Part shown: positions 20,476 to 47,673 of the stretch, piece by piece | How the letters are laid out: the number at the start of each line of letters is the position of its first letter | Numbering within the stretch: the stretch's first letter is position 1 | Source of the DNA: an uncultured Gammaproteobacteria bacterium | GTDB lineage: Bacteria; Patescibacteriota; Patescibacteriia; SG8-24 | Reading direction: 5' to 3' | Length of the DNA: 64,000 nt | NCBI GenBank assembly: GCA_964486995.1 | Contig: CAZAOV010000002.1 | Location: forward strand, 26,559 to 90,558 | Made by a program: the position numbers and the translations under genes | The notes under the pieces: generated by a model | Databases searched by the model: none | Told to the model about the DNA's origin: nothing | What the model saw: the letters and a program-made list of their open reading frames with translations, nothing else

Positions 20476-20513
20476 CGAATTAAAAAACCCGCCACTTAGT
20501 AGCGGGTATTTTT

Positions 20514-20550
20514 ATCCCCAGAATAGGTCCCTGGCACCTATTCTGGGGAT
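20514..20550. repeat. 37-bp palindromic element (atccccagaatagg-tccctggca-cctattctggggat), copy 1
   Basis: 14-bp stem and 9-nt loop, flanked by T/A runs. Sits at the 3' end of the ABC exporter gene. Confidence 0.7.
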
Positions 20551-20580
20551 ATTTTTTAGCATGAAGCTAGGCGGAGCACA

Positions 20581-22443
20581 TCAGAGCTGAATCCCCTGGT
20601 CGGTGGCGAGACGACGGAAGGTCGGAGAAACCTGGTGTAGTTTTTCGAACGAATCAGCGACAGCTTCGACTTGCTGTTCGCCGGGCGGTGTGTTTTCGAA
20701 CGAACGCAACACCACGAACTTGGAACATAGTTCGCGCACCGTCGAAAGTCGATGTGTCACGATGAGTGCGGAAACTTCAGGACCCAACAGTTTCTGCAGA
20801 CCATCCTGCACCGCACGTTCGGTAGTGGAGTCGAGCGAGGACGTGGCCTCGTCGATTACCATGAACTTCGGGTGCTTCAGCACCGCCGCGCCGACCATCA
20901 GACGCTGAGCCTGACCGCCGGACAGCTTGATTCCGCGCCGGCCGACTACGGTGTTAAGACCGTCTGTTAACCGTTCGCCGAAATCAATCTTCAACAATCG
21001 CATCACTCGCCAGAGATCCTCGTCGGTAACTTTGTCGCGCTCGTCTTCCGGCAGACCGTACAGCAGGTTATAGCGAATCGTACCGTCGAGTACCTGCGCC
21101 TGCTGAGCGATGTAGCCGATGCGCGATATCCACGAACTCACAGAGACTTCACGCAAATCGTAGCCGCCCACCAAAATCGAACCGCTGGTCGGATCACAAA
21201 AACGCTGCACCAACCGCATCAATGTAGTCTTGCCGGCGCCGGAGTCACCGAGCAGTGCGACCTTCTCGCCCGGCTCGATATCGAACGAAATGTTATCAAG
21301 CACCTTAATGACTTCGTGACCGCGGTCTCTGTAGGCGTAAGTAACACCATCTAGCACCACGTTCACCGACTCTTCCGACGACAACAGTACGGGCTGGTCC
21401 GAATCAACGATATCCGGCTCAACATTCATTGCGCGCCGCAACGACATCACCGACGGCATGCAATGATTCATATGCTCCTCGAGCTTAGACACACGCCACA
21501 TATTGTCACAAATGCGCCGTACCCAAATGTACATCGGCAACATTGCGGCTACGGTCCATTCACCGGACCAAATTCCCCACGACACCAGACACAACATGCC
21601 GAGTGAAATCAAATTAATGACGCTTCCGCGAATGCTGATCATCTGAATGAACCAATGCCAGAAACGCCGGTCTTTGACGATCAGATTGTCGTAATCCTCA
21701 TGCAGTCGATTTGTTTCCTCGTGTTCCTTGCCACATGTCTTCACGCGCTCGATGTTGTCCCAACGCTCCACGCGAAAGCGATTGATGCGACGAAACTCGG
21801 CATCGAGCGGTGTGCACACCTTAAGAATCGACCGATTCAAAAACAGTGAAGAAAACATGTGCAGGAATAATGCGCTAGTCATGACTGCGCCAGCGACTGG
21901 GAATACAATCCACAAAATCGCAAATGAAATGAGCAGTTCGGCGATGCGCACACCACCTTCTAGCAGCATCATCTCCTGCATCTGCAGCAATCGCGCTCTC
22001 CCTTTCTCCATGTTGGCGGCGGACAGGTCATCGCTATCACACATATGCTGACCGAGAGACTTCTCCATGAACATCTCAGTCAGACGCGTATCCAACCGAG
22101 TTATGTTGTATCCCAGGCAGTACTCACGAAAATGCATGAATGCGGTGAAGAACCAATGTGCCAGCAGAAACAACCCGCCAACTGTTCCAAGCGACCGGAC
22201 CAAGGCAGTCCAGTCCCGGGCGATGAGCGCCTCGATGGCCCACTTGATAGCGAGAGGCTCCAGCATGCTGAACACGCTGGCCAGCAACAGACTGATGAGC
22301 GCAGGTACAGCCCAGCGCCGACTTTCCGACGGTACGAACTCGCGCCACGCCCAGCGGAACACCCGAATCGACTCTAACGAATCGGACAGGTACTCGCGCA
22401 CCGTAACATTGGTGTTGCGACTCTCTTCCGGGTCTTTGTACAT
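20581..22443 (-). CDS. ABC transporter, fused permease/ATPase (type I exporter, MsbA-like half-transporter)
   Basis: Six-TM region followed by an NBD with Walker A GDSGAGKTT, signature LSGGQAQRL and Walker B MVIDEATS. RBS ggaggg. Confidence 0.9.
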   Translation of the reverse strand: MYKDPEESRNTNVTVREYLSDSLESIRVFRWAWREFVPSESRRWAVPALISLLLASVFSMLEPLAIKWAIEALIARDWTALVRSLGTVGGLFLLAHWFFTAFMHFREYCLGYNITRLDTRLTEMFMEKSLGQHMCDSDDLSAANMEKGRARLLQMQEMMLLEGGVRIAELLISFAILWIVFPVAGAVMTSALFLHMFSSLFLNRSILKVCTPLDAEFRRINRFRVERWDNIERVKTCGKEHEETNRLHEDYDNLIVKDRRFWHWFIQMISIRGSVINLISLGMLCLVSWGIWSGEWTVAAMLPMYIWVRRICDNMWRVSKLEEHMNHCMPSVMSLRRAMNVEPDIVDSDQPVLLSSEESVNVVLDGVTYAYRDRGHEVIKVLDNISFDIEPGEKVALLGDSGAGKTTLMRLVQRFCDPTSGSILVGGYDLREVSVSSWISRIGYIAQQAQVLDGTIRYNLLYGLPEDERDKVTDEDLWRVMRLLKIDFGERLTDGLNTVVGRRGIKLSGGQAQRLMVGAAVLKHPKFMVIDEATSSLDSTTERAVQDGLQKLLGPEVSALIVTHRLSTVRELCSKFVVLRSFENTPPGEQQVEAVADSFEKLHQVSPTFRRLATDQGIQL

Positions 22444-22463: not shown

Positions 22464-22502
22464 TATCCCCAGAATAGGTGCCAGGGACCTATTCTGGGGA
22501 TA
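22464..22502. repeat. 37-39-bp palindromic element, copy 2, inverted relative to copy 1 (loop tgccaggga)
   Basis: Same stem as 20514-20550 but with the loop reverse-complemented. Lies in the 5' leader of the ABC exporter gene. Confidence 0.7.
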
Positions 22503-22584
22503 AAGCACCTTTTGTATAAGAACAAAACGACCGTGCTCTTCTTCCGAACACGGTCTAGGGAATTCTCTAAATTAAGCTAAAAAC

Positions 22585-28121: not shown

Positions 28122-29999
28122 CTAAATAACAACCCCCTGATCCTCGGCTAAGCGTCGAAATGTCGGCGAAATTTGAGCAATTTCTTCGAAAGAACCGCCG
28201 ATGACCTCGATTTGATTCTCACCAGCTGGTGTGTTTTGAAGTTCGCGCAACACCACAAACTTGGAACACAGCTCGCGCACGGTAGAAAGCCGATGAGCCA
28301 CGATAAGCGCTGAAACGTCCTCACCAAGAATCTTACGCAGCCCGTCTTGTACCGCCTTCTCGGTAGTGGAATCGAGCGAGGACGTGGCCTCGTCGATGAC
28401 CATGAACCGCGGACATTTCAGTACCGCCGCACCGACCATCAACCGCTGAGCCTGCCCGCCGGATAGCTTAATCCCCCGCCGGCCGACCACGGTGTCGAGC
28501 CCATCCACAAGACGCTCACCGAAGTCGATTTTCAACAGTTCTACCACGCGTTGCAGTTCTTCGTCCGTAACTTTATTACGTTCCTCGGCCGGCAAACCGT
28601 ACAGCAAATTGTATTTGATAGTGCCATCTAGAACCTGCGGCTGCTGCGGAATGTATCCAATTAGGCGCTGCCAATCGCGTAACCGTACCGCGCGCAAGTC
28701 ATGACCGTCAATCAATATACGTCCGGCGGTCGGATCCATAAACCGCTGAACCAACCGCATCACCGTAGTCTTGCCTGCACCGGACGGACCGACCAAAGCG
28801 ACCTTTTCACCTAGGCTGATACTGAAATCCACACCGGAAAGAACCGGCGGATTGTCCTTGTTGGTGTCCTCACCGTCGCCGCGCGGATAAGTGAAGCAGA
28901 CATCATCCAACTCCACCGCGACCGGCAAATCATTAGACAATCGATGCGCGTTCGGTGTGTCGGTCACTTCGCAGGGCATCATCAACGCTTCACGCATGGA
29001 CCGTACGGACGGCATGTTCTTGTTCATGCGGTGCTCAACCTGCCCGATGCGCCACACATCATCAGAGATGCGCCGCACCCAGGTAATGAACGGAAACAGG
29101 GTACCGATTGTGAAAGCACTCTGCCACACCATCCAGGCCGCATAGCAAATCAGCGGTCCAATAATCAGAATGTCATAGATCAAGTGTCGGATGTTGAATG
29201 TGCGGATGAACCACAGCCAAAACTTACGGTCCCGTGCGATGATGTCCATGTACCACGTACGCAAGTGCCGAACCTCTTCCTCTTCCTTGCCGTTGGTCTT
29301 GACCCGCTCTGGATATTCCCAACGCTCCCGCATGTAGCGATTGATGGCGCGGAAATCCGCATCGAGCGGAGTGGTCTCGGCGATGGTTCGGCGGTTTACG
29401 TAGGTTGCCCAAAAGAAGTAAGACACCAGCAGACCGAACATGACCAAACCAGCGAACCACGACAGCACGAGCAAGAAGATAAACGAGATTAGCACGTTAA
29501 ATACGGTCATCACCCCGTCGAACAGCACCACGTACTCGACCTCCATCACGCGATGGCGGCCCTTCTCCACGTTGGCGGCCGACAGCACCCCCGAATCCTG
29601 TAGGTGCTGACCGAGCGACTTGGCCAGAAACAGTTCGGTCGAACGCACGTTCAGCTGAACTTCGTCCTCTCCGATGGCATACTCGCGCAGGCTGAAAAAA
29701 ATCCAACTGCAGATTCGGCTCAACGTGAAAAGGGTCACGATAGAACCGAGCGACCACACCACCATGTCGTAATTGCGTATGACTAAGCCGTCCACCAAAT
29801 ATTTTAGCGCGAACGGGAACAGCATACCGAACACCGTGGCGAACAATTGTGCGACGAGCGCACCAAGCTGCCACCGACGACTCAATCGGTTGACAAATTC
29901 ATCAATAACCCAACGAAACACACGGACTGCTTCCAGAGCGTCCGCTAGATATTCTCGTAACGAACCGGCAATACGCCGAGATTCCCTGGGGTCGTCCAT
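28122..29999 (-). CDS. ABC transporter, fused permease/ATPase (paralog of 20581..22443)
   Basis: The C-terminal NBD is near-identical to the first exporter. The start MDDPRESRR with the RBS ggaggagca aligns with MYKDPEESR of the paralog. A terminator follows at 28086-28112. Confidence 0.9.
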   Translation of the reverse strand: MDDPRESRRIAGSLREYLADALEAVRVFRWVIDEFVNRLSRRWQLGALVAQLFATVFGMLFPFALKYLVDGLVIRNYDMVVWSLGSIVTLFTLSRICSWIFFSLREYAIGEDEVQLNVRSTELFLAKSLGQHLQDSGVLSAANVEKGRHRVMEVEYVVLFDGVMTVFNVLISFIFLLVLSWFAGLVMFGLLVSYFFWATYVNRRTIAETTPLDADFRAINRYMRERWEYPERVKTNGKEEEEVRHLRTWYMDIIARDRKFWLWFIRTFNIRHLIYDILIIGPLICYAAWMVWQSAFTIGTLFPFITWVRRISDDVWRIGQVEHRMNKNMPSVRSMREALMMPCEVTDTPNAHRLSNDLPVAVELDDVCFTYPRGDGEDTNKDNPPVLSGVDFSISLGEKVALVGPSGAGKTTVMRLVQRFMDPTAGRILIDGHDLRAVRLRDWQRLIGYIPQQPQVLDGTIKYNLLYGLPAEERNKVTDEELQRVVELLKIDFGERLVDGLDTVVGRRGIKLSGGQAQRLMVGAAVLKCPRFMVIDEATSSLDSTTEKAVQDGLRKILGEDVSALIVAHRLSTVRELCSKFVVLRELQNTPAGENQIEVIGGSFEEIAQISPTFRRLAEDQGVVI

Positions 30000-30334
30000 T
30001 GCTCCTCCAACTGTCAAAGAAACGGGCATTTTGCCCGATTAGAGAGGTTATCAATCGGACGAGGGTTTGGTCAAGGGGCAAAGTGCCGTGCGACATCCTA
30101 GACTGGTTGAACCACACAAGCCATCTGTGGTAATCGCACATAACGACGTGGCGGCAGCCTGCTTACTGGCAGGCAGCGGTATGCCTAAGCTTCATTCATC
30201 CGAGCACACCACAGCAACCCTTCTTTATCGCTACTGATAGGAATGAAAACCTCATGCCCGAATTCAACTGAGGTTCCACCCGGGATTTCCTGGGGCACAA
30301 AAAAAAGCCGCCGGAGTTTTCGGCGGCTTTTACA

Positions 30335-39110: not shown

Positions 39111-39236
39111 AGTGTAGAAGTATAGATGTATAGAAGTATAGATGTGTAGAAGTTTAGGAGACCCACCCATTTCATCAGACGTCTTGCGTAAGTGCGCGGG
39201 TCTGCTACACCCCTACACTACTACACATCTACACTG
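39111..39236. repeat. family-A palindromic repeat element, copy 1 (GTRTAGRRG heptamer arrays flanking a conserved core)
   Basis: Left arm of tandem gtgtagaag/gtatagatg units. Core ...gacgtcttgcgtaagtgcgcgggtctgctacac. Right arm of inverted ctacac units. Confidence 0.7.
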
Positions 39237-39244
39237 TTTGATGA

Positions 39245-41572: not shown

Positions 41573-41680
41573 GGGTGTAGAGGTATAGAGGTGTAGAGGT
41601 GTAGGAGATCCGCACACTCACGAAAAACGCCTAGTGCAAATGAGGGGGTCTCCTACGCCTCTGCTTCTACACTTCTATAC
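41573..41680. repeat. family-A palindromic repeat element, copy 2
   Basis: Left arm gtgtagaggtatagaggtgtagaggtgtaggagatcc, a core containing ctagtgcaaatga, then inverted units. Confidence 0.7.
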
Positions 41681-41683
41681 TTT

Positions 41684-42520
41684 TTACCCGACCGCAGCAG
41701 CGCGCACGTTTACTTCGCTGCCGAGCCATTCCTGGGCGAGCGCGACGAATTGTTCTGTGCGGTCGCTGACATAGAACTGATGTTGGCCACGGGTACGCAA
41801 CGAAGCGTCTAGTTCTGGATGCTGCTGAAGATACGCGGCGAGTTCAGCCACTGCATCATGCGCCGGGTCAACCAGGGTGACGCTCTCCCCCATCGCCTGA
41901 CCGATAACGGTACGCAGGAACGGATAGTGCGTACAGCCCAGAATAAGCGTATCTATACGTGATAGTTGTAGCGGGCGCAAGTATTCTCTGGCAATCGACG
42001 CGGTTTCTTTGCGGGCGGCCCAACCTTCCTCAACGAGTGGTACAAACAATGGACAGGGCGTCGAAAAAACTTTGGTCCGCGGAGCGAGTCGTTTCATCTT
42101 GCGTTCATAGATGCCGGAACCGACCGTGCCACGAGTGCCGACCACACCAACATGCCCTTTGGTGACCGCAGCCGCGCGCTTTACCGCTGGCATTACTACC
42201 TCGAACACCGGCACGTCAACGTTGCGACGCAAGGTCTCGACGCCGTGCGCGGACACGGTGTTGCAGGCGACCATGATAACTTTTGCGCCTTTGTCGAGCA
42301 AAAACTCCGCATTCTCCAGCGCATATTTTTGAATCAGCTCGCGGCTCTTGATGCCATAGGGAGTGCGTGCAGTATCGCCAAAATAAACCACCCGGCGACC
42401 GGGTAGTTGTCTTAGCACTTCCTTAGCGACGGTCAGGCCTCCGAGACCTGAGTCAAATATACCTATCATATTGCGCTGAAATTGCCCTTCAATAATGGCA
42501 GTTTGGGAGCTAAGAATCAA
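41684..42520 (-). CDS. murI: glutamate racemase
   Basis: IGIFDSGLGGLTV and GCTHYP motifs. Confidence 0.9.
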   Translation of the reverse strand: MILSSQTAIIEGQFQRNMIGIFDSGLGGLTVAKEVLRQLPGRRVVYFGDTARTPYGIKSRELIQKYALENAEFLLDKGAKVIMVACNTVSAHGVETLRRNVDVPVFEVVMPAVKRAAAVTKGHVGVVGTRGTVGSGIYERKMKRLAPRTKVFSTPCPLFVPLVEEGWAARKETASIAREYLRPLQLSRIDTLILGCTHYPFLRTVIGQAMGESVTLVDPAHDAVAELAAYLQQHPELDASLRTRGQHQFYVSDRTEQFVALAQEWLGSEVNVRAAAVG

Positions 42521-42545
42521 GGGTTAAGAGTTGGGGTGTTTTAAG

Positions 42546-42643
42546 AGTATAGAAGTATAGGAGTGTAGGGGTGTAGGATACTCGCTCATTTGCACTAGAC
42601 GTCATGCGTAAGCGGGTCTACTACACTTCCATGCTTCTACGAG
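42546..42643. repeat. family-A palindromic repeat element, copy 3 (inverted relative to copy 2)
   Basis: Its core tcatttgcactag is the reverse complement of ctagtgcaaatga in copy 2. The two copies bracket murI. Confidence 0.7.
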
Positions 42644-42689
42644 GTATCGGACATTTCGTGTGGGTAAATAGTCTCTTTTTCTTCTAGTT

Positions 42690-43750
42690 CTAGCGCGTTT
42701 CTGGAACATTTATGGTCATATGACCATAAATGGAAGCAAAAAGAGGTGCGACAAGTGCGGCAAACCCATGCAGCGATGGGGTCAAACCAAGACCGGAAAG
42801 CAGCGCTGGAAATGCAGACCCTGTTCCAAGACCGGCACGAGAGTCAGGCACGATGTGACCGCCGGACATAGGCAACGCCTGTTTCTGAACTGGGTGCGCA
42901 GCAAGGAGTCCGTGGCCGACACGGCAAGGAAGGCAGGTGTGACCGCACGAACCGCGCACCGCTGGTTCGCCCCGTTCTGGAAAGCCCCGCCGCGGACCTG
43001 CAGCCGAATCGCTGCACGCATCCTCGTTGTCGACGCGGTGTCGGTCGTGAAGCACGAGGCGGTGGCGCTGCTCGCCGGCGACCCCGGACCTCCGGAACCG
43101 GTCGGCTGGGAGTTCGCCGCGCGCGAGTGCCACGAGTCCTGGCGGTCGTTCTTCCTCGGCCTTCGCAGCCGCGGGGCGGACCCCGGGTTCGTGGTCTGCG
43201 ACGGCCAGAAGGGCCTGCTCAAGGCGGCCCGGGAAGTCTTTCCACATGCGGCGGTCCAGCGTTGCGTTGTCCACGTGCACCGCCTGGCCATGGCCTGGCT
43301 GATGCGAAAACCGAAAACCGCGGCGGGCCGCGAGCTGCGGCCAATCGTCTCCGCGCTGCTCCTGGTGCGCACGCCGGAAGATCAGGACACATGGCTGGAG
43401 TCACTGCGCTCGCGGGAAATCAGGCACGCCGAGTTCCTGAAGGAGAGGACGTACGGCGAGAACGGATGGTGGTACACGCACCGGAAGCTGAGGGCGGTCA
43501 GGTCGCTGCTGCGCAACGCCGCACCCGACCTGTTCCGCTACGTCGACGACCCTCCGGTGCCGAGGACCTCGAACCACGTCGAGGGAGGGCTGAACAGCCG
43601 AATCAAGGAGCTGCTGCGCTCGCATCGGGGGATATCAAAAAGCCAGCGCATGGCGCTGGTGTGCTGGTACCTGGAGTCGAGACGGGAGGAGAAAAAACCC
43701 CACACGAAATGTCCGATAGCTCGTTTTGCCATACGCTTCTTATGATGCAC
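42690..43750 (+). mobile_element. IS1-family insertion sequence (limits approximate), anomalously GC-rich
   Basis: Segment of about 68-70% GC inside roughly 52% GC DNA. Encodes a fused zinc-ribbon/HTH/DDE transposase. Terminal inverted repeats could not be defined by eye. Confidence 0.55.
42720..43745 (+). CDS. IS1-family transposase (fused InsAB-like single ORF)
   Basis: N-terminal CxxC...CxxC zinc ribbon and HTH. FVVCDGQKGL matches the IS1 MTDGWPLY region. SNHVEGGLNSRIKELLRSHRGISKS matches the IS1 [24 protein letters not shown] region. Confidence 0.7.
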   Translation: MTINGSKKRCDKCGKPMQRWGQTKTGKQRWKCRPCSKTGTRVRHDVTAGHRQRLFLNWVRSKESVADTARKAGVTARTAHRWFAPFWKAPPRTCSRIAARILVVDAVSVVKHEAVALLAGDPGPPEPVGWEFAARECHESWRSFFLGLRSRGADPGFVVCDGQKGLLKAAREVFPHAAVQRCVVHVHRLAMAWLMRKPKTAAGRELRPIVSALLLVRTPEDQDTWLESLRSREIRHAEFLKERTYGENGWWYTHRKLRAVRSLLRNAAPDLFRYVDDPPVPRTSNHVEGGLNSRIKELLRSHRGISKSQRMALVCWYLESRREEKKPHTKCPIARFAIRFL

Positions 43751-43912
43751 TCTCCATGGGAAGCGTGTCTAGTATATGGGGTACAGTCCAATACCATTTT
43801 TTCACGTCATTGACAACGCAGTATACATATTATCCACAATTCAAACCTGTTTTGATTTGTGGATAAAAAAACCCGCTAATCACGGATATTTATTGTCTCG
43901 ACCACCTAAATT

Positions 43913-44140
43913 CTATCGAAAATATGCATCTACCGGTACACGGGAAAAGAAAGTATAAGCCACCACCCCTAGTACCACCAGAACGTGCAAAACCCTTTTC
44001 CCGGTTTTCACCATGCTAATCTTTGGCTTTTTGCTGGCGGACGCGGCCACATGACGGGCGGCTTCACAGCAGTTTTGTTTTCGCATTTTGTTTCCTTCTA
44101 GATGTCTATTTTCATTATACCAAGTTATCCACATATCCAC
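43913..44140 (-). CDS. doubtful small ORF inside the DnaA-box region
   Basis: 75-aa ORF with one hydrophobic segment. No RBS, and it overlaps the DnaA boxes. Confidence 0.15.
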   Translation of the reverse strand: MDMWITWYNENRHLEGNKMRKQNCCEAARHVAASASKKPKISMVKTGKRVLHVLVVLGVVAYTFFSRVPVDAYFR

Positions 44141-44220
44141 AAGTATCTAACCTATGATGATATTTTATAAAAAAGGTCAATACCCCTAGTAAATAATTGA
44201 TTATTGCTCTGTAGATAAAC

Positions 44221-44251
44221 AAAAACTCCGCTTTTTAAAGACGGAGTTTTT
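44221..44251. terminator. rho-independent terminator hairpin (aaaaactccg-ctttttaaaga-cggagttttt)
   Basis: Perfect 10-bp stem with flanking A/T runs, downstream of the mutase gene. Confidence 0.6.
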
Positions 44252-44278
44252 GATCCAATTTAGTAGTTATCCACAACC

Positions 44279-45652
44279 TTATCCACGAATGATTTTTAGC
44301 AGTTCATCGCGATGTATTTTCATATTTTCCTCATCCTTGGCTTCCAGATTCAGTCGGATTTTAGGTTCCGTATTCGATGCCCGAACACTGAACCACCAGT
44401 CCCCTTCCGGCTGTTCTGGATTCATGAATTCCATGCGTACACCGTCGATTCTAATCACGTTTGAGGCCTCACCTGCATACTTTTCCTCGAGCGCCTTAAA
44501 TACTGCTTCTTTATCTGCGACTTCGGAGTTAATCTCACCAGAATGAAAATACCGTAGAAGGGGCGCCACGAGTTCAGATAACGGCTTCCCGGTCTCGGAA
44601 ATAAGCTGCATAAACAACAACATCACATAATCAGAGGATTCCGCACCACAAAACTCACGGAAATAAAAATGATTAGACAGCTCACCAGCAAAAACAGCGT
44701 TAACTTCGCGCATATGAGGCTTAATCAAGCCATGTCCAACGCGAGTCATAACCGGCTTTCCTCCAGCCGCCTCAATCTCCTCAACCGTGGCCATGCTCTC
44801 GCGAACATCATACAAAACAGCTTCACCCTGATTATCACGCAACACTTCGCTAGCAATCAAAGCCGTAATAAAATCGCCGCGCACGGTCTTGCCTTTCTCA
44901 TCGACCAATCCGATTCGATCTCCGTCACCATCAAAAGCCACGCCCAAATCCGCACCAGAATCAACCACTTTCAGCTTTAGTGCATCTAACGTCTTCTCCT
45001 TGAGCGGATTTGCCTCGTGGTTCGGAAACGTGCCGTCCAGCTCCCGGTAAAGCACCTCGTATTCACAGCCGGCAATCTTTGACAGCACGTCATCGATAAT
45101 AATTCCCTCCATGCCATTTCCGGTATCTACCACCACTTTCATCGGTTTTATTTTGCTCACGTCAGCGTCGGAAAACAGCTTCTTTAAATAATCATCTCGG
45201 ATATTTTTTTCGCTCAATGAGCCATTATTTTCAACCGGCTCATATGGACCGGCCAACGCCAAATCGCGTATGTCATCCATGCCATTTGAACCACCAATCG
45301 GCAACGCATCACCGAGACAAATCTTTACGCCATTATATTCGCTCGGGTTGTGCGAGGCTGTCACCATCACCCCGGCTTCGTGCTCCGCATACTGGCAAGC
45401 CGCAAAATAAATCATCGGCGTGGTAACCATGCCAACATCAACCACATCGCTTCCCTGCGACATGATTCCTTTGGCGAGTGCTTCGAACAGCTCCGGCGTA
45501 GTCGAGCGCATGTCTTTTCCGACCGCAATCACCTTGGCATCGGTGAATTTAACGATTGCTTGGCCAATGCGATAAGCACCATCAGTATCAAGCTGCTCGG
45601 GAGATAAACCTCGGATATCGTAGGCTTTAAAGATAGAACCGTCTAAAGGCAT
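44279..45652 (-). CDS. phosphomannomutase/phosphoglucomutase (alpha-D-phosphohexomutase family)
   Basis: Active-site loop TASHNPSEYNGVK, metal-binding DGDGDR, and sugar-binding loop. Confidence 0.9.
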   Translation of the reverse strand: MPLDGSIFKAYDIRGLSPEQLDTDGAYRIGQAIVKFTDAKVIAVGKDMRSTTPELFEALAKGIMSQGSDVVDVGMVTTPMIYFAACQYAEHEAGVMVTASHNPSEYNGVKICLGDALPIGGSNGMDDIRDLALAGPYEPVENNGSLSEKNIRDDYLKKLFSDADVSKIKPMKVVVDTGNGMEGIIIDDVLSKIAGCEYEVLYRELDGTFPNHEANPLKEKTLDALKLKVVDSGADLGVAFDGDGDRIGLVDEKGKTVRGDFITALIASEVLRDNQGEAVLYDVRESMATVEEIEAAGGKPVMTRVGHGLIKPHMREVNAVFAGELSNHFYFREFCGAESSDYVMLLFMQLISETGKPLSELVAPLLRYFHSGEINSEVADKEAVFKALEEKYAGEASNVIRIDGVRMEFMNPEQPEGDWWFSVRASNTEPKIRLNLEAKDEENMKIHRDELLKIIRG

Positions 45653-45979: not shown

Positions 45980-46570
45980 TTGCGCCGCATCATGAAATTA
46001 TATATGACCGGACTAACAATAGCTGCCGCGGTCGTTCTCGGCCTCATCCTAATCTTGGCAGTGTGGATAATAGCTGTTTACAACAGTTTAATCACACTAC
46101 GTAACCGCACGGACGAAGCCTGGTCCGATATCGACGTTCAGCTCAAACGCCGTTATGACCTGATTCCAAATCTGGTTGAGACCGTTAAGGGTTACGCCTC
46201 ACACGAACGCGAAACCCTGGAGAAAGTCACCCAAGCTCGCAATATGGCGATGAGTGCGGAAGGCAAACACGATAAGGCCGAAGCTGAAAATATGCTTTCC
46301 CAAACTCTGAAATCTTTGTTCGCGGTAGCTGAGAACTACCCGGACCTGAAGGCGTCACAGAACTTCCTCCAACTGCAGGATGACCTGAAAGATACCGAGG
46401 ATAAAATACAAGCTGCGCGCCGTTTCTATAACGCAAACGTCCGGGACTTCAACACAAAGATACAGATTTTCCCAAATAACGTTATCGCCGGTCAGCTAAA
46501 TTTCGAAAAATACGAGTTCTTCGAAATTGAGAACGAAAAGGAGCGCGAGAATGTACAAGTAAAGTTCTAG
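45980..46570 (+). CDS. lemA: LemA family protein
   Basis: N-terminal TM plus a LemA core ([31 protein letters not shown]...YNANVRDFN). Confidence 0.85.
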
Positions 46571-47556: not shown

Positions 47557-47573
47557 CTAAAACGTATAGAAGT

Positions 47574-47673
47574 GTAGGAGTGTAGGGGTGTAGAAGACCA
47601 GCCCACTTACGAATGACGCCCAACGTAAGCGAGCGGGTCTTCTACACTTCTACACCTCTAAACTTCTACACTC
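47574..47673. repeat. family-A palindromic repeat element, copy 4
   Basis: gtatagaagtgtaggagtgtaggggtgtagaagacc ... core acgtaagcgagcgggtcttctacac ... inverted units. Confidence 0.7.

Follow-up and report, generated by a model that had tools for sequence, protein, structure and literature searches.

The DNA stretch analysed here (the window) comprises 64,000 nucleotides of GenBank contig CAZAOV010000002.1, positions 26,559 to 90,558, and belongs to a Patescibacterium, i.e. a bacterium of the candidate phyla radiation (CPR), with a GC content of about 51%. Between its glutamate racemase gene murI and a small open reading frame (ORF), adjoining the probable replication origin, lies a complete insertion sequence (IS). 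The original prediction, which was made from the DNA letters alone, had placed at this site an IS1-family transposase gene, recently acquired from a donor with a high-GC genome. Our analysis identifies an ordinary member of the IS256/Mutator superfamily, from an IS1249-like subgroup whose transposase carries a zinc ribbon at its N-terminus. The predicted ORF of 1.03 kb was recovered as the transposase gene of 341 codons, as were the predicted shadow ORFs (196, 196 and 228 aa), which overlap it on both strands. The described location is also correct, with an intergenic repeat on one side and clustered perfect DnaA boxes on the other. Features are listed in Table 1; comparison loci are cited by an L and a number.

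Table 1. Features of the insertion sequence and its immediate surroundings (positions refer to the window, residues to the transposase).
Feature	Position	Strand	Remarks
Complete insertion sequence	42641..43722	+	1082 bp; termini GAGGTATCGG... / ...CCGATAGCTC
Left terminal inverted repeat	42641..42664	+	terminus also in L068, L002 and L078
Right terminal inverted repeat	43699..43722	-	holds the family's native stop codon, TAG 43717-43719
Transposase ORF	42720..43745	+	341 aa; residues 1-326 native, from about 327 onward frame-shifted read-through
CCCC run	43698..43701	+	holds one C more than the reading frame of all relatives requires
Perfect 13+13-nt palindrome	42707..42732	+	11-bp stem as RNA; AUG 42720-42722 at the boundary of loop and 3' arm
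Four-cysteine zinc ribbon (C10, C13, C32, C35)	42747..42824	+	IS256_N_4Cys, IS1_IS1595_Zn; three short beta-strands at residues 18-41 in the model
Catalytic core	43032..43583	+	D105 (43032-43034) on beta-1; D161 (43200-43202) after beta-4
CxxH motif (C182/H185)			starts the helical insertion domain of the catalytic core
E288	43581-43583	+	in NHVEGG motif
Intergenic hairpin repeat (outside the element)	42549..42640	-	intact; 8-nt GTRTAGRR units; basal pair closes at the base immediately left of the element
Four perfect DnaA boxes, TTATCCACA (outside the element)	43830..44275		at 43830, 43858, 44125 and 44267

The element is delimited by terminal inverted repeats of 24-26 nt. Their arms, 42639-42664 and 43699-43724, are complementary at 25 of 26 positions, and the 2-nt outward extension of the match to 42639 is probably due to chance. 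In the whole window, the 20-nt core of the repeat occurs at two sites only, with none expected by chance. The Logan contig L068, which is 1078 bp long, represents exactly one element; because it begins and ends at the same termini as those given in Table 1, the window element is set at 1082 bp, and the earlier boundaries of 42690 and 43750 have to be replaced. The 26 related loci have ends of the form GRG...CYC and element lengths of 1.07-1.10 kb. Perfect 8-bp target duplications flank 11 of these 26 loci and, in addition, L078 (GGTTTTGT); in the chance control, mismatched flank pairs score 8/8 in 0.4% of the trials. The right flanks often open with a G(N)TTTTG-like string (window 43723-43730, GTTTTGCC; L078, GGTTTTGT; L005, CGTTTTGT; L002, GCTTTGTA), which may reflect a target-sequence preference.

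The native transposase consists of 326 codons and is encoded by one continuous ORF. All of its relatives terminate with ...KKPTRNV(T/R)-stop, the stop codon lying within the right repeat, and the window copy reads KKPHTKCPIARFAIRFL-stop at this place. Removal of one C from the run at 43698-43701 restores the ending ...EEKKPTRNVR-stop, again with the TAG in the right repeat. It is thus a single-base insertion that makes the ORF overrun the element end by 26 nt, and about the last six codons of the transposase are rewritten. The extra C could be a true mutation or a consensus error. Otherwise the copy appears well preserved: the catalytic residues and the element ends are intact, and all other invariant residues are kept. 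The ratio of nonsynonymous to synonymous substitution rates (dN/dS) ranges from 0.19 to 0.30 (0.19 against L068, 0.27 against L078), so that the lineage is under purifying selection.

Profile searches place the protein among the IS256-like transposases. The Pfam model Transposase_mut (PF00872) matches with 61.2 bits (cut-off 21; E = 1.1e-16), accompanied by weaker matches to MULE and IS66. The top NCBIfam model is the IS1249 family (NF033544), with 238.3 bits over residues 8-326, below the cut-off of 300; the Zn-binding type of the IS256 variants (NF048019) gives 121.1 bits over residues 20-320, and the IS256 equivalog 74.8 bits, both below a cut-off of 150. The model of the cysteine-rich N-terminus, IS256_N_4Cys (NF048018), is passed with 30.9 bits (cut-off 27). 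Since the IS1249 cut-off is missed and the protein is only 26% identical to true IS1249, we describe the element as IS1249-like and do not file it as IS1249; apparently it is a new, unnamed IS of the IS256/IS1249-like kind.

Structural comparison leads to the same superfamily. A profile built from 19 relatives matches a single family in the PDB, namely the IS256-family transposase ISCth4 of Clostridium thermocellum (PDB 6xg8, 6xgw, 6xgx; E = 3e-13), which is the structural reference for the IS256 family. The active site of ISCth4 is formed by D175, D241 and E348, and the protein has a CxxH motif at C262/H265 (PMC7780238). In the profile alignment, after application of a 3-residue numbering offset, D241 corresponds to D161 (VVCDGQKG) and C262/H265 to C182/H185 (QRCVVH); the alignment stops short of D105 and E288. 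All of these positions (D105, D161, C182/H185 and E288) are invariant in the 19 relatives, and from their invariance and their canonical placement in the predicted structure D105 probably represents the first D, and E288 the E, of the DDE triad. An AlphaFold model built from the alignment has a mean predicted local distance difference test (pLDDT) score of 84 and a predicted template modelling (pTM) score of 0.77, and its only segment with pLDDT below 50 is the frame-shifted end, residues 327-341. The order of its predicted elements is a beta-ribbon (18-41), a three-helix bundle (48-88), an RNase-H core of the form beta1-3/alpha/beta4/alpha/beta5 (101-181), a helical insertion (183-276) and a helix after E288. 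The five top fold matches in the PDB are all ISCth4 chains (E = 9e-10 to 2.5e-7; TM about 0.45-0.5), and the retroviral integrases that follow have E values weaker by more than three orders of magnitude.

With IS256 and ISCth4 the element has in common the single ORF, the inverted repeats of about 25 nt and, in its relatives but not in the window copy itself, the 8-bp duplications; with ISCth4 also the RNase-H-like DDE core and a helical insertion domain with the CxxH motif. It differs from ISCth4 in its compactness (1.08 kb and a native protein of 326 aa, compared with about 400 aa in the solved ISCth4 chains), in the zinc ribbon at the N-terminus, and by an identity of only 15-17% in the structural alignment. 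IS1249 of Corynebacterium, which flanks erm(X) in Tn5432, aligns over the full length and likewise has a Cys-rich N-terminal region. However, the copies of pTP10/Tn5432 are only 26% identical, the best plasmid-borne copy annotated as IS1249 family reaches 35%, and the hosts of IS1249 are Actinobacteria, whereas the relatives of the window element reside in CPR bacteria.

Membership in IS1 has almost no probability left. Resemblance to IS1 does exist, in the N-terminal zinc ribbon followed by a helix-turn-helix (HTH) and in the C-terminal catalytic E followed by basic residues; the ribbon scores 28 bits in IS1_IS1595_Zn, exactly at the cut-off of 28, and the model transpos_IS1 yields a weak match (E = 3.6e-4) limited to residues 10-84, that is to ribbon and HTH. 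Such a ribbon cannot separate the families, because it is common to IS1595 and to the zinc-ribbon variants of IS256. The catalytic domain remains unmatched: transpos_IS1 scores 20.5 bits with a cut-off of 100, and no IS1 DDE domain of Pfam is found in the transposase at E <= 1, whereas the models Transposase_mut, IS1249 and IS256 cover the whole protein. The predicted fold includes an IS256-type helical insertion domain, unlike IS1, and both the profile and the fold matches in the PDB point to ISCth4 with its CxxH insertion domain. The gene layout differs as well. IS1, about 0.77 kb long, contains the overlapping genes insA and insB', which programmed -1 frameshifting joins into one; the window element has one ORF in 1082 bp. 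The sequence blocks that had been taken as diagnostic for IS1 (NHVEGGLNSRIKEL and NHVEGGLNSRIKELLRSHRG) turn out to be the invariant E-containing motif of the IS256-like family in the 19 relatives. What stands of the earlier description is the domain architecture, for the protein has the four-cysteine ribbon, an HTH-like bundle of helices and a core of the DDE/RNase-H type.

The start codon of the transposase gene lies within the perfect palindrome listed in Table 1. Folded as RNA in a segment of 61 nt, the hairpin reaches -23 kcal/mol (z = -5.5). It is kept with compensatory changes in 8-9 relatives. The high-GC clade and its sister clade both have it, and the matched arms there read TTTATGG/CCATAAA, TTTAGGG/CCCTAAA, CTTAAGG/CCTTAAG and CTAATGG/CCATTAG. 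In an alignment of 12 sequences, 83% of the cells pair, compared with at most 53% for slid partners, and four pairs show changes in both partners; covariation scores 0.293 versus 0.147 in shuffles, and none of 500 shuffles comes up to 0.293. Because G-U pairs occur, an RNA structure is favoured over a DNA-level operator, which is the less favoured, if still conceivable, explanation. In IS10 and IS50, translation of the transposase is inhibited by a fold-back structure. The window element resembles them in that its transposase start codon is part of a stable RNA hairpin kept with compensatory changes, and by analogy the hairpin probably limits translation of the transposase. No sigma-70 promoter was found on the plus strand upstream of the gene in a promoter scan, and inspection by eye of the joined element ends revealed no convincing circle-junction promoter.

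The predicted GC excess of the element is confirmed. The transposase ORF has a GC content of 0.651 and the element one of 0.633-0.672 (0.633 over its full length), compared with 0.513 for the rest of the window; 300-nt windows reach 0.67-0.71 across 42800-43550, with 0.37-0.57 in the neighbouring DNA, and the highest other 1-kb value in the window is 0.580. For 33 long host ORFs, the GC content is 0.525±0.024 (maximum 0.590), and the transposase ORF lies 5.2 standard deviations above them. GC at the third codon position (GC3) amounts to 0.814 versus 0.584±0.046 in the 33 host genes. A similar contrast is found in other hosts. In the tree of the family, the GC-rich elements form a monophyletic clade with 60-70% GC in hosts of 44-67% GC. 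Element and flank values are 0.60 and 0.46 in L001, 0.69 and 0.53 in L079, 0.68 and 0.58 in L010, 0.70 and 0.61 in L078, and 0.64 and 0.60-0.67 in L074-L077; the contig L068 (0.67) has no flank. L002, L006 and L059 are misplaced in the tree owing to frameshifts and naive translation and were left out of the clade definition; the frameshifted L002 (0.63 versus 0.44) and L006 (0.69 versus 0.55) show the same element-host contrast. The P0013 element of L074-L077 (0.640) has its transposase encoded identically on 14 contigs of an Uhrbacteria lineage of about 60% GC, in differing contexts, and is evidently multi-copy and compositionally at home in its host. In the wider family, gene GC (range 0.27-0.69) follows flank GC, with a median difference of +0.015 across 38 loci whose flanks could be used.

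The closest relative, L068, is 80% identical at the amino acid level and 82% at the DNA level, with 0.58 synonymous substitutions per site (dS). The 120 best protein matches have identities of 44-80% and are unnamed metagenome proteins or transposases of Patescibacteria/Uhrbacteria; all named relatives with at least 44% identity come from Patescibacteria/CPR metagenome-assembled genomes (MAGs). Close relatives, with 50-80% identity, are found in CPR genomes only, and in species-representative genomes almost all of the 67 loci lie in CPR MAGs. Some related loci (L004, L011, L013, L014, L019, L036 and others) were binned as Gammaproteobacteria, Burkholderiales, Nitrospirae or Nanoarchaeota, and their contigs are often short; either these are mis-binned CPR contigs or the host range is broader. 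A single metagenome scan with the transposase gave one locus, with 43% identity. The searched viral contigs contained no relative of the transposase, and the searched plasmids no DNA-level match to the element.

A donor of high GC content from a distant phylum is therefore not what the matches suggest: the best of them belong to the same phylum, and the GC excess is most readily understood as a sign that the element's ancestors lived in GC-rich CPR hosts. Direct acquisition from a high-GC phylum such as Actinobacteria is very improbable in our view, although the top curated model, IS1249, is an actinobacterial element, the GC content of the window element falls in the actinobacterial range, and some CPR epibionts are known to have Actinobacteria as hosts. 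True IS1249 (C. striatum pTP10, C. acnes Tn5432) has the low identity mentioned above, the best plasmid-borne relative is 35% identical, with no match at the DNA level, and the named relatives with at least 44% identity are all from CPR MAGs.

What is more difficult to judge is whether the high GC content is an intrinsic, actively maintained property of the clade, in which case the contrast would be uninformative on recency and donor. Selection on mRNA or DNA structure, a protein rich in Arg, Ala and Gly, or GC-biased conversion among copies could be the means. All members of the clade keep their 60-70% GC in hosts of 44-67% despite a protein divergence of 20-45%, and GC2 is raised too (0.517 versus 0.408), as this explanation would have it. 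On the other hand, the excess is largest at GC3 (z = 4.9, compared with z = 1.2 at GC1), which is the pattern of a mutational background and not of selection at the protein level; the remainder of the family, including the sister clade, has the GC content of its hosts, from 27 to 55%; and within the GC-rich clade a higher GC content of the host tends to go with a higher one of the element (Spearman 0.67, p = 0.07, n = 8), a hint at partial drift towards the host. We therefore hold intrinsic maintenance to be unlikely, while giving it some weight. The original prediction had itself pointed out that best hits in close relatives of similar GC would speak for such a family property, and this is partly the case: the best matches are from the same phylum and equally GC-rich whatever the GC content of the host. 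Because the clade is restricted to CPR bacteria and at home in hosts of 60-67% GC, and the wider family tracks host GC, we prefer to see the excess GC as a legacy of residence in GC-richer CPR genomes, and horizontal arrival from such a lineage is plausible.

The locus itself is informative about the insertion. The adjacent MurI has a 100% identical protein at NCBI, encoded on a contig of 99.8 kb, and the next matches (70-81% identity) are from Patescibacteria and Candidatus Uhrbacteria. Three related genomes, L080 (MAG JAHJAU01) and the Uhrbacteria-like L082 and L083, share the gene order ClpB-M48 peptidase-LemA-phosphomannomutase-small ORF-MurI-RseP-PheS-PheT, and the window has the same order, interrupted by the element at the junction of MurI and the small ORF. 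Right of the element lies a conserved block (TTCATTATACCAAGTTATCCACAT) that is orthologous to L080. Since the flanks are natural neighbours in three relatives, a lineage-specific insertion is the best reading, and a rearrangement or chimeric join is disfavoured. Taking all results together, we think it probable that the window contains one complete 1082-bp IS256/Mutator, IS1249-like copy that inserted in this lineage and owes its GC content to GC-richer CPR hosts. The predicted horizontal acquisition is only partly upheld, by the absence of the element from syntenic relatives and by its undrifted GC3; the attribute 'recent' is not, as the event cannot be dated.

Several results weigh against this interpretation, in addition to the missed cut-offs of the two best NCBIfam models. 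The nearest public relative has only the modest DNA identity and the dS given above, and hence no donor can be named and no date given. The clade is GC-rich in low-GC hosts too, which could mean intrinsic maintenance. An empty site at base level was not obtained, the intergenic DNA of L080-L083 being too diverged. Nearest to the host are L084 and L069, with MurI identities of at least 90% and of 81%; they have a different gene at the spot and thus provide no empty site either. Finally, the original prediction had named inverted repeats and duplications of 8-9 bp as marks to look for, and only the former are present in the window copy: its flanks (left ...GCTTCTAC, right GTTTTGCC...) match at best at 4 of 8 positions, which is the chance level, shifted boundaries included. 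A simple recent insertion is for this reason not fully documented. The absence of a duplication is not unusual in the data set, as about 15 of the 26 related loci also lack one. A 6/8 similarity between GCTTCTAC and GCTTCTTA, the latter 12 nt past the right end, was considered as a target duplication and judged unconvincing, because the termini of the family are sharply defined.

An assembly artefact, either a misplaced repeat or a chimeric join with a GC-rich contig, would explain the missing duplication, and in relatives the assembly very often yields contigs of about 1.08 kb that contain nothing but the element. Its chances nevertheless seem very slim. Both inverted repeats are complete, the composition shifts inside the element (the first 100 bp have 39% GC) and not at a join, the flanks are adjacent by nature in the three related genomes, with the right-hand block orthologous to L080, and many related loci are also without a duplication. 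As a speculative explanation of the missing duplication, the element may have arrived within or beside GC-rich foreign DNA, an adjacent deletion then removing one flank. The side of murI on which the element lies is a variable spot that has repeatedly accepted GC-rich foreign DNA. In L084 (1-300) and L069 (1-301), the gene on this side of murI has 68-69% GC, compared with 55-57% in neighbouring core genes, and its product ends in ...TEAHDDY.DTLTFIMTATY*. L070 and L071 have an FG-GAP repeat protein at the murI spot, and L070-72 also carry different genes on the element's side.

IS256 and ISCth4 transpose by a copy-out/paste-in mechanism through a double-stranded circular intermediate (PMC7780238). 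By analogy with these two, one end of the window element would attack the other to form a figure-eight, which replication would turn into a double-stranded circle, and the circle would then be integrated with an 8-bp target duplication. The hairpin over the start codon would restrain translation of the transposase. On a longer time scale, the clade may have diversified in GC-rich CPR hosts and then spread horizontally to CPR hosts of lower GC, including that of the window. For many relatives the contig is as long as one element, about 1.07-1.1 kb (e.g. L068). These one-element contigs and the presence of P0013 on 14 contigs are signs of multi-copy elements, currently or recently active, that break short-read CPR assemblies, and the element would account for many assemblies breaking into contigs of about 1.08 kb.

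The main value of these results lies in a corrected annotation, i.e. IS256/IS1249-like instead of IS1, with the ends, the frameshift and the missing duplication defined. They also call for caution in general: the large GC contrast here does indicate foreign ancestry, with a source most likely in the same phylum, but a whole clade shares it, and on its own it neither names a donor nor dates anything. A well-delimited mobile element in many Patescibacteria MAGs could, moreover, mark gene flow between CPR lineages.

To the right, the DnaA boxes begin 108 bp from the end of the element. The window contains five perfect boxes, the fifth at 46062; all of them fall between 43830 and 46062, where about 0.5 would be expected in the window. 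Genes switch strand at 45652/45980, those to the left being on the minus and those to the right on the plus strand, and the GC skew, negative before the switch, is about zero or positive after it. Both changes lie 2-3 kb to the right of the element and are what one would expect close to an origin. This region is probably the chromosomal replication origin; neither dnaA nor dnaN was seen among the neighbouring genes examined. In another CPR genome, a 69%-identical relative (L078:373-1443) lies beside dnaN-dnaA-rpmH-rnpA, with a DnaA box about 130 bp past its right end.

A more far-reaching reading, which we regard as doubtful, is that the element represents an uncatalogued, CPR-restricted and compact (about 1.08 kb) IS256-like family, with a clade of 60-70% GC across hosts and a preference for targets next to origins or hairpins. 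If so, it would mark frequent gene flow within a phylum considered to contain little mobile DNA, and its landing near DnaA boxes or origins, in the window and beside dnaN-dnaA in L078, would be a real preference and not chance; the preference would also cover the spot that holds GC-rich foreign genes in L084 and L069. As evidence for DnaA proximity as a trait of the family the enrichment is weak: outside the window, three boxes lie within 1 kb of elements, compared with about one expected, which is too few for a conclusion in either direction.

To the left, the element directly adjoins an intergenic hairpin repeat with a folding energy of -30.9 kcal/mol (z = -4.6). Four copies of this repeat, with arms of about 48 nt, are present in the window between co-directional genes (about 39112-39239, 41575-41686, 42543-42640 and 47559-47671), and L084 has its own variant with GTGTAAGG units. 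The GTRTAGRR hairpins look like repetitive extragenic palindromic (REP) elements or terminators. Elsewhere in the window, two 41-nt palindromes (TTTATCCCCAGAATAGGTCCCTGGCACCTATTCTGGGGATA) at 20511-20551 and 22464-22504, perfectly complementary to each other, flank an ORF of 620 aa (20581-22443), of which a diverged paralogue with about 73% identity over 300 nt is located at 28122-30029.

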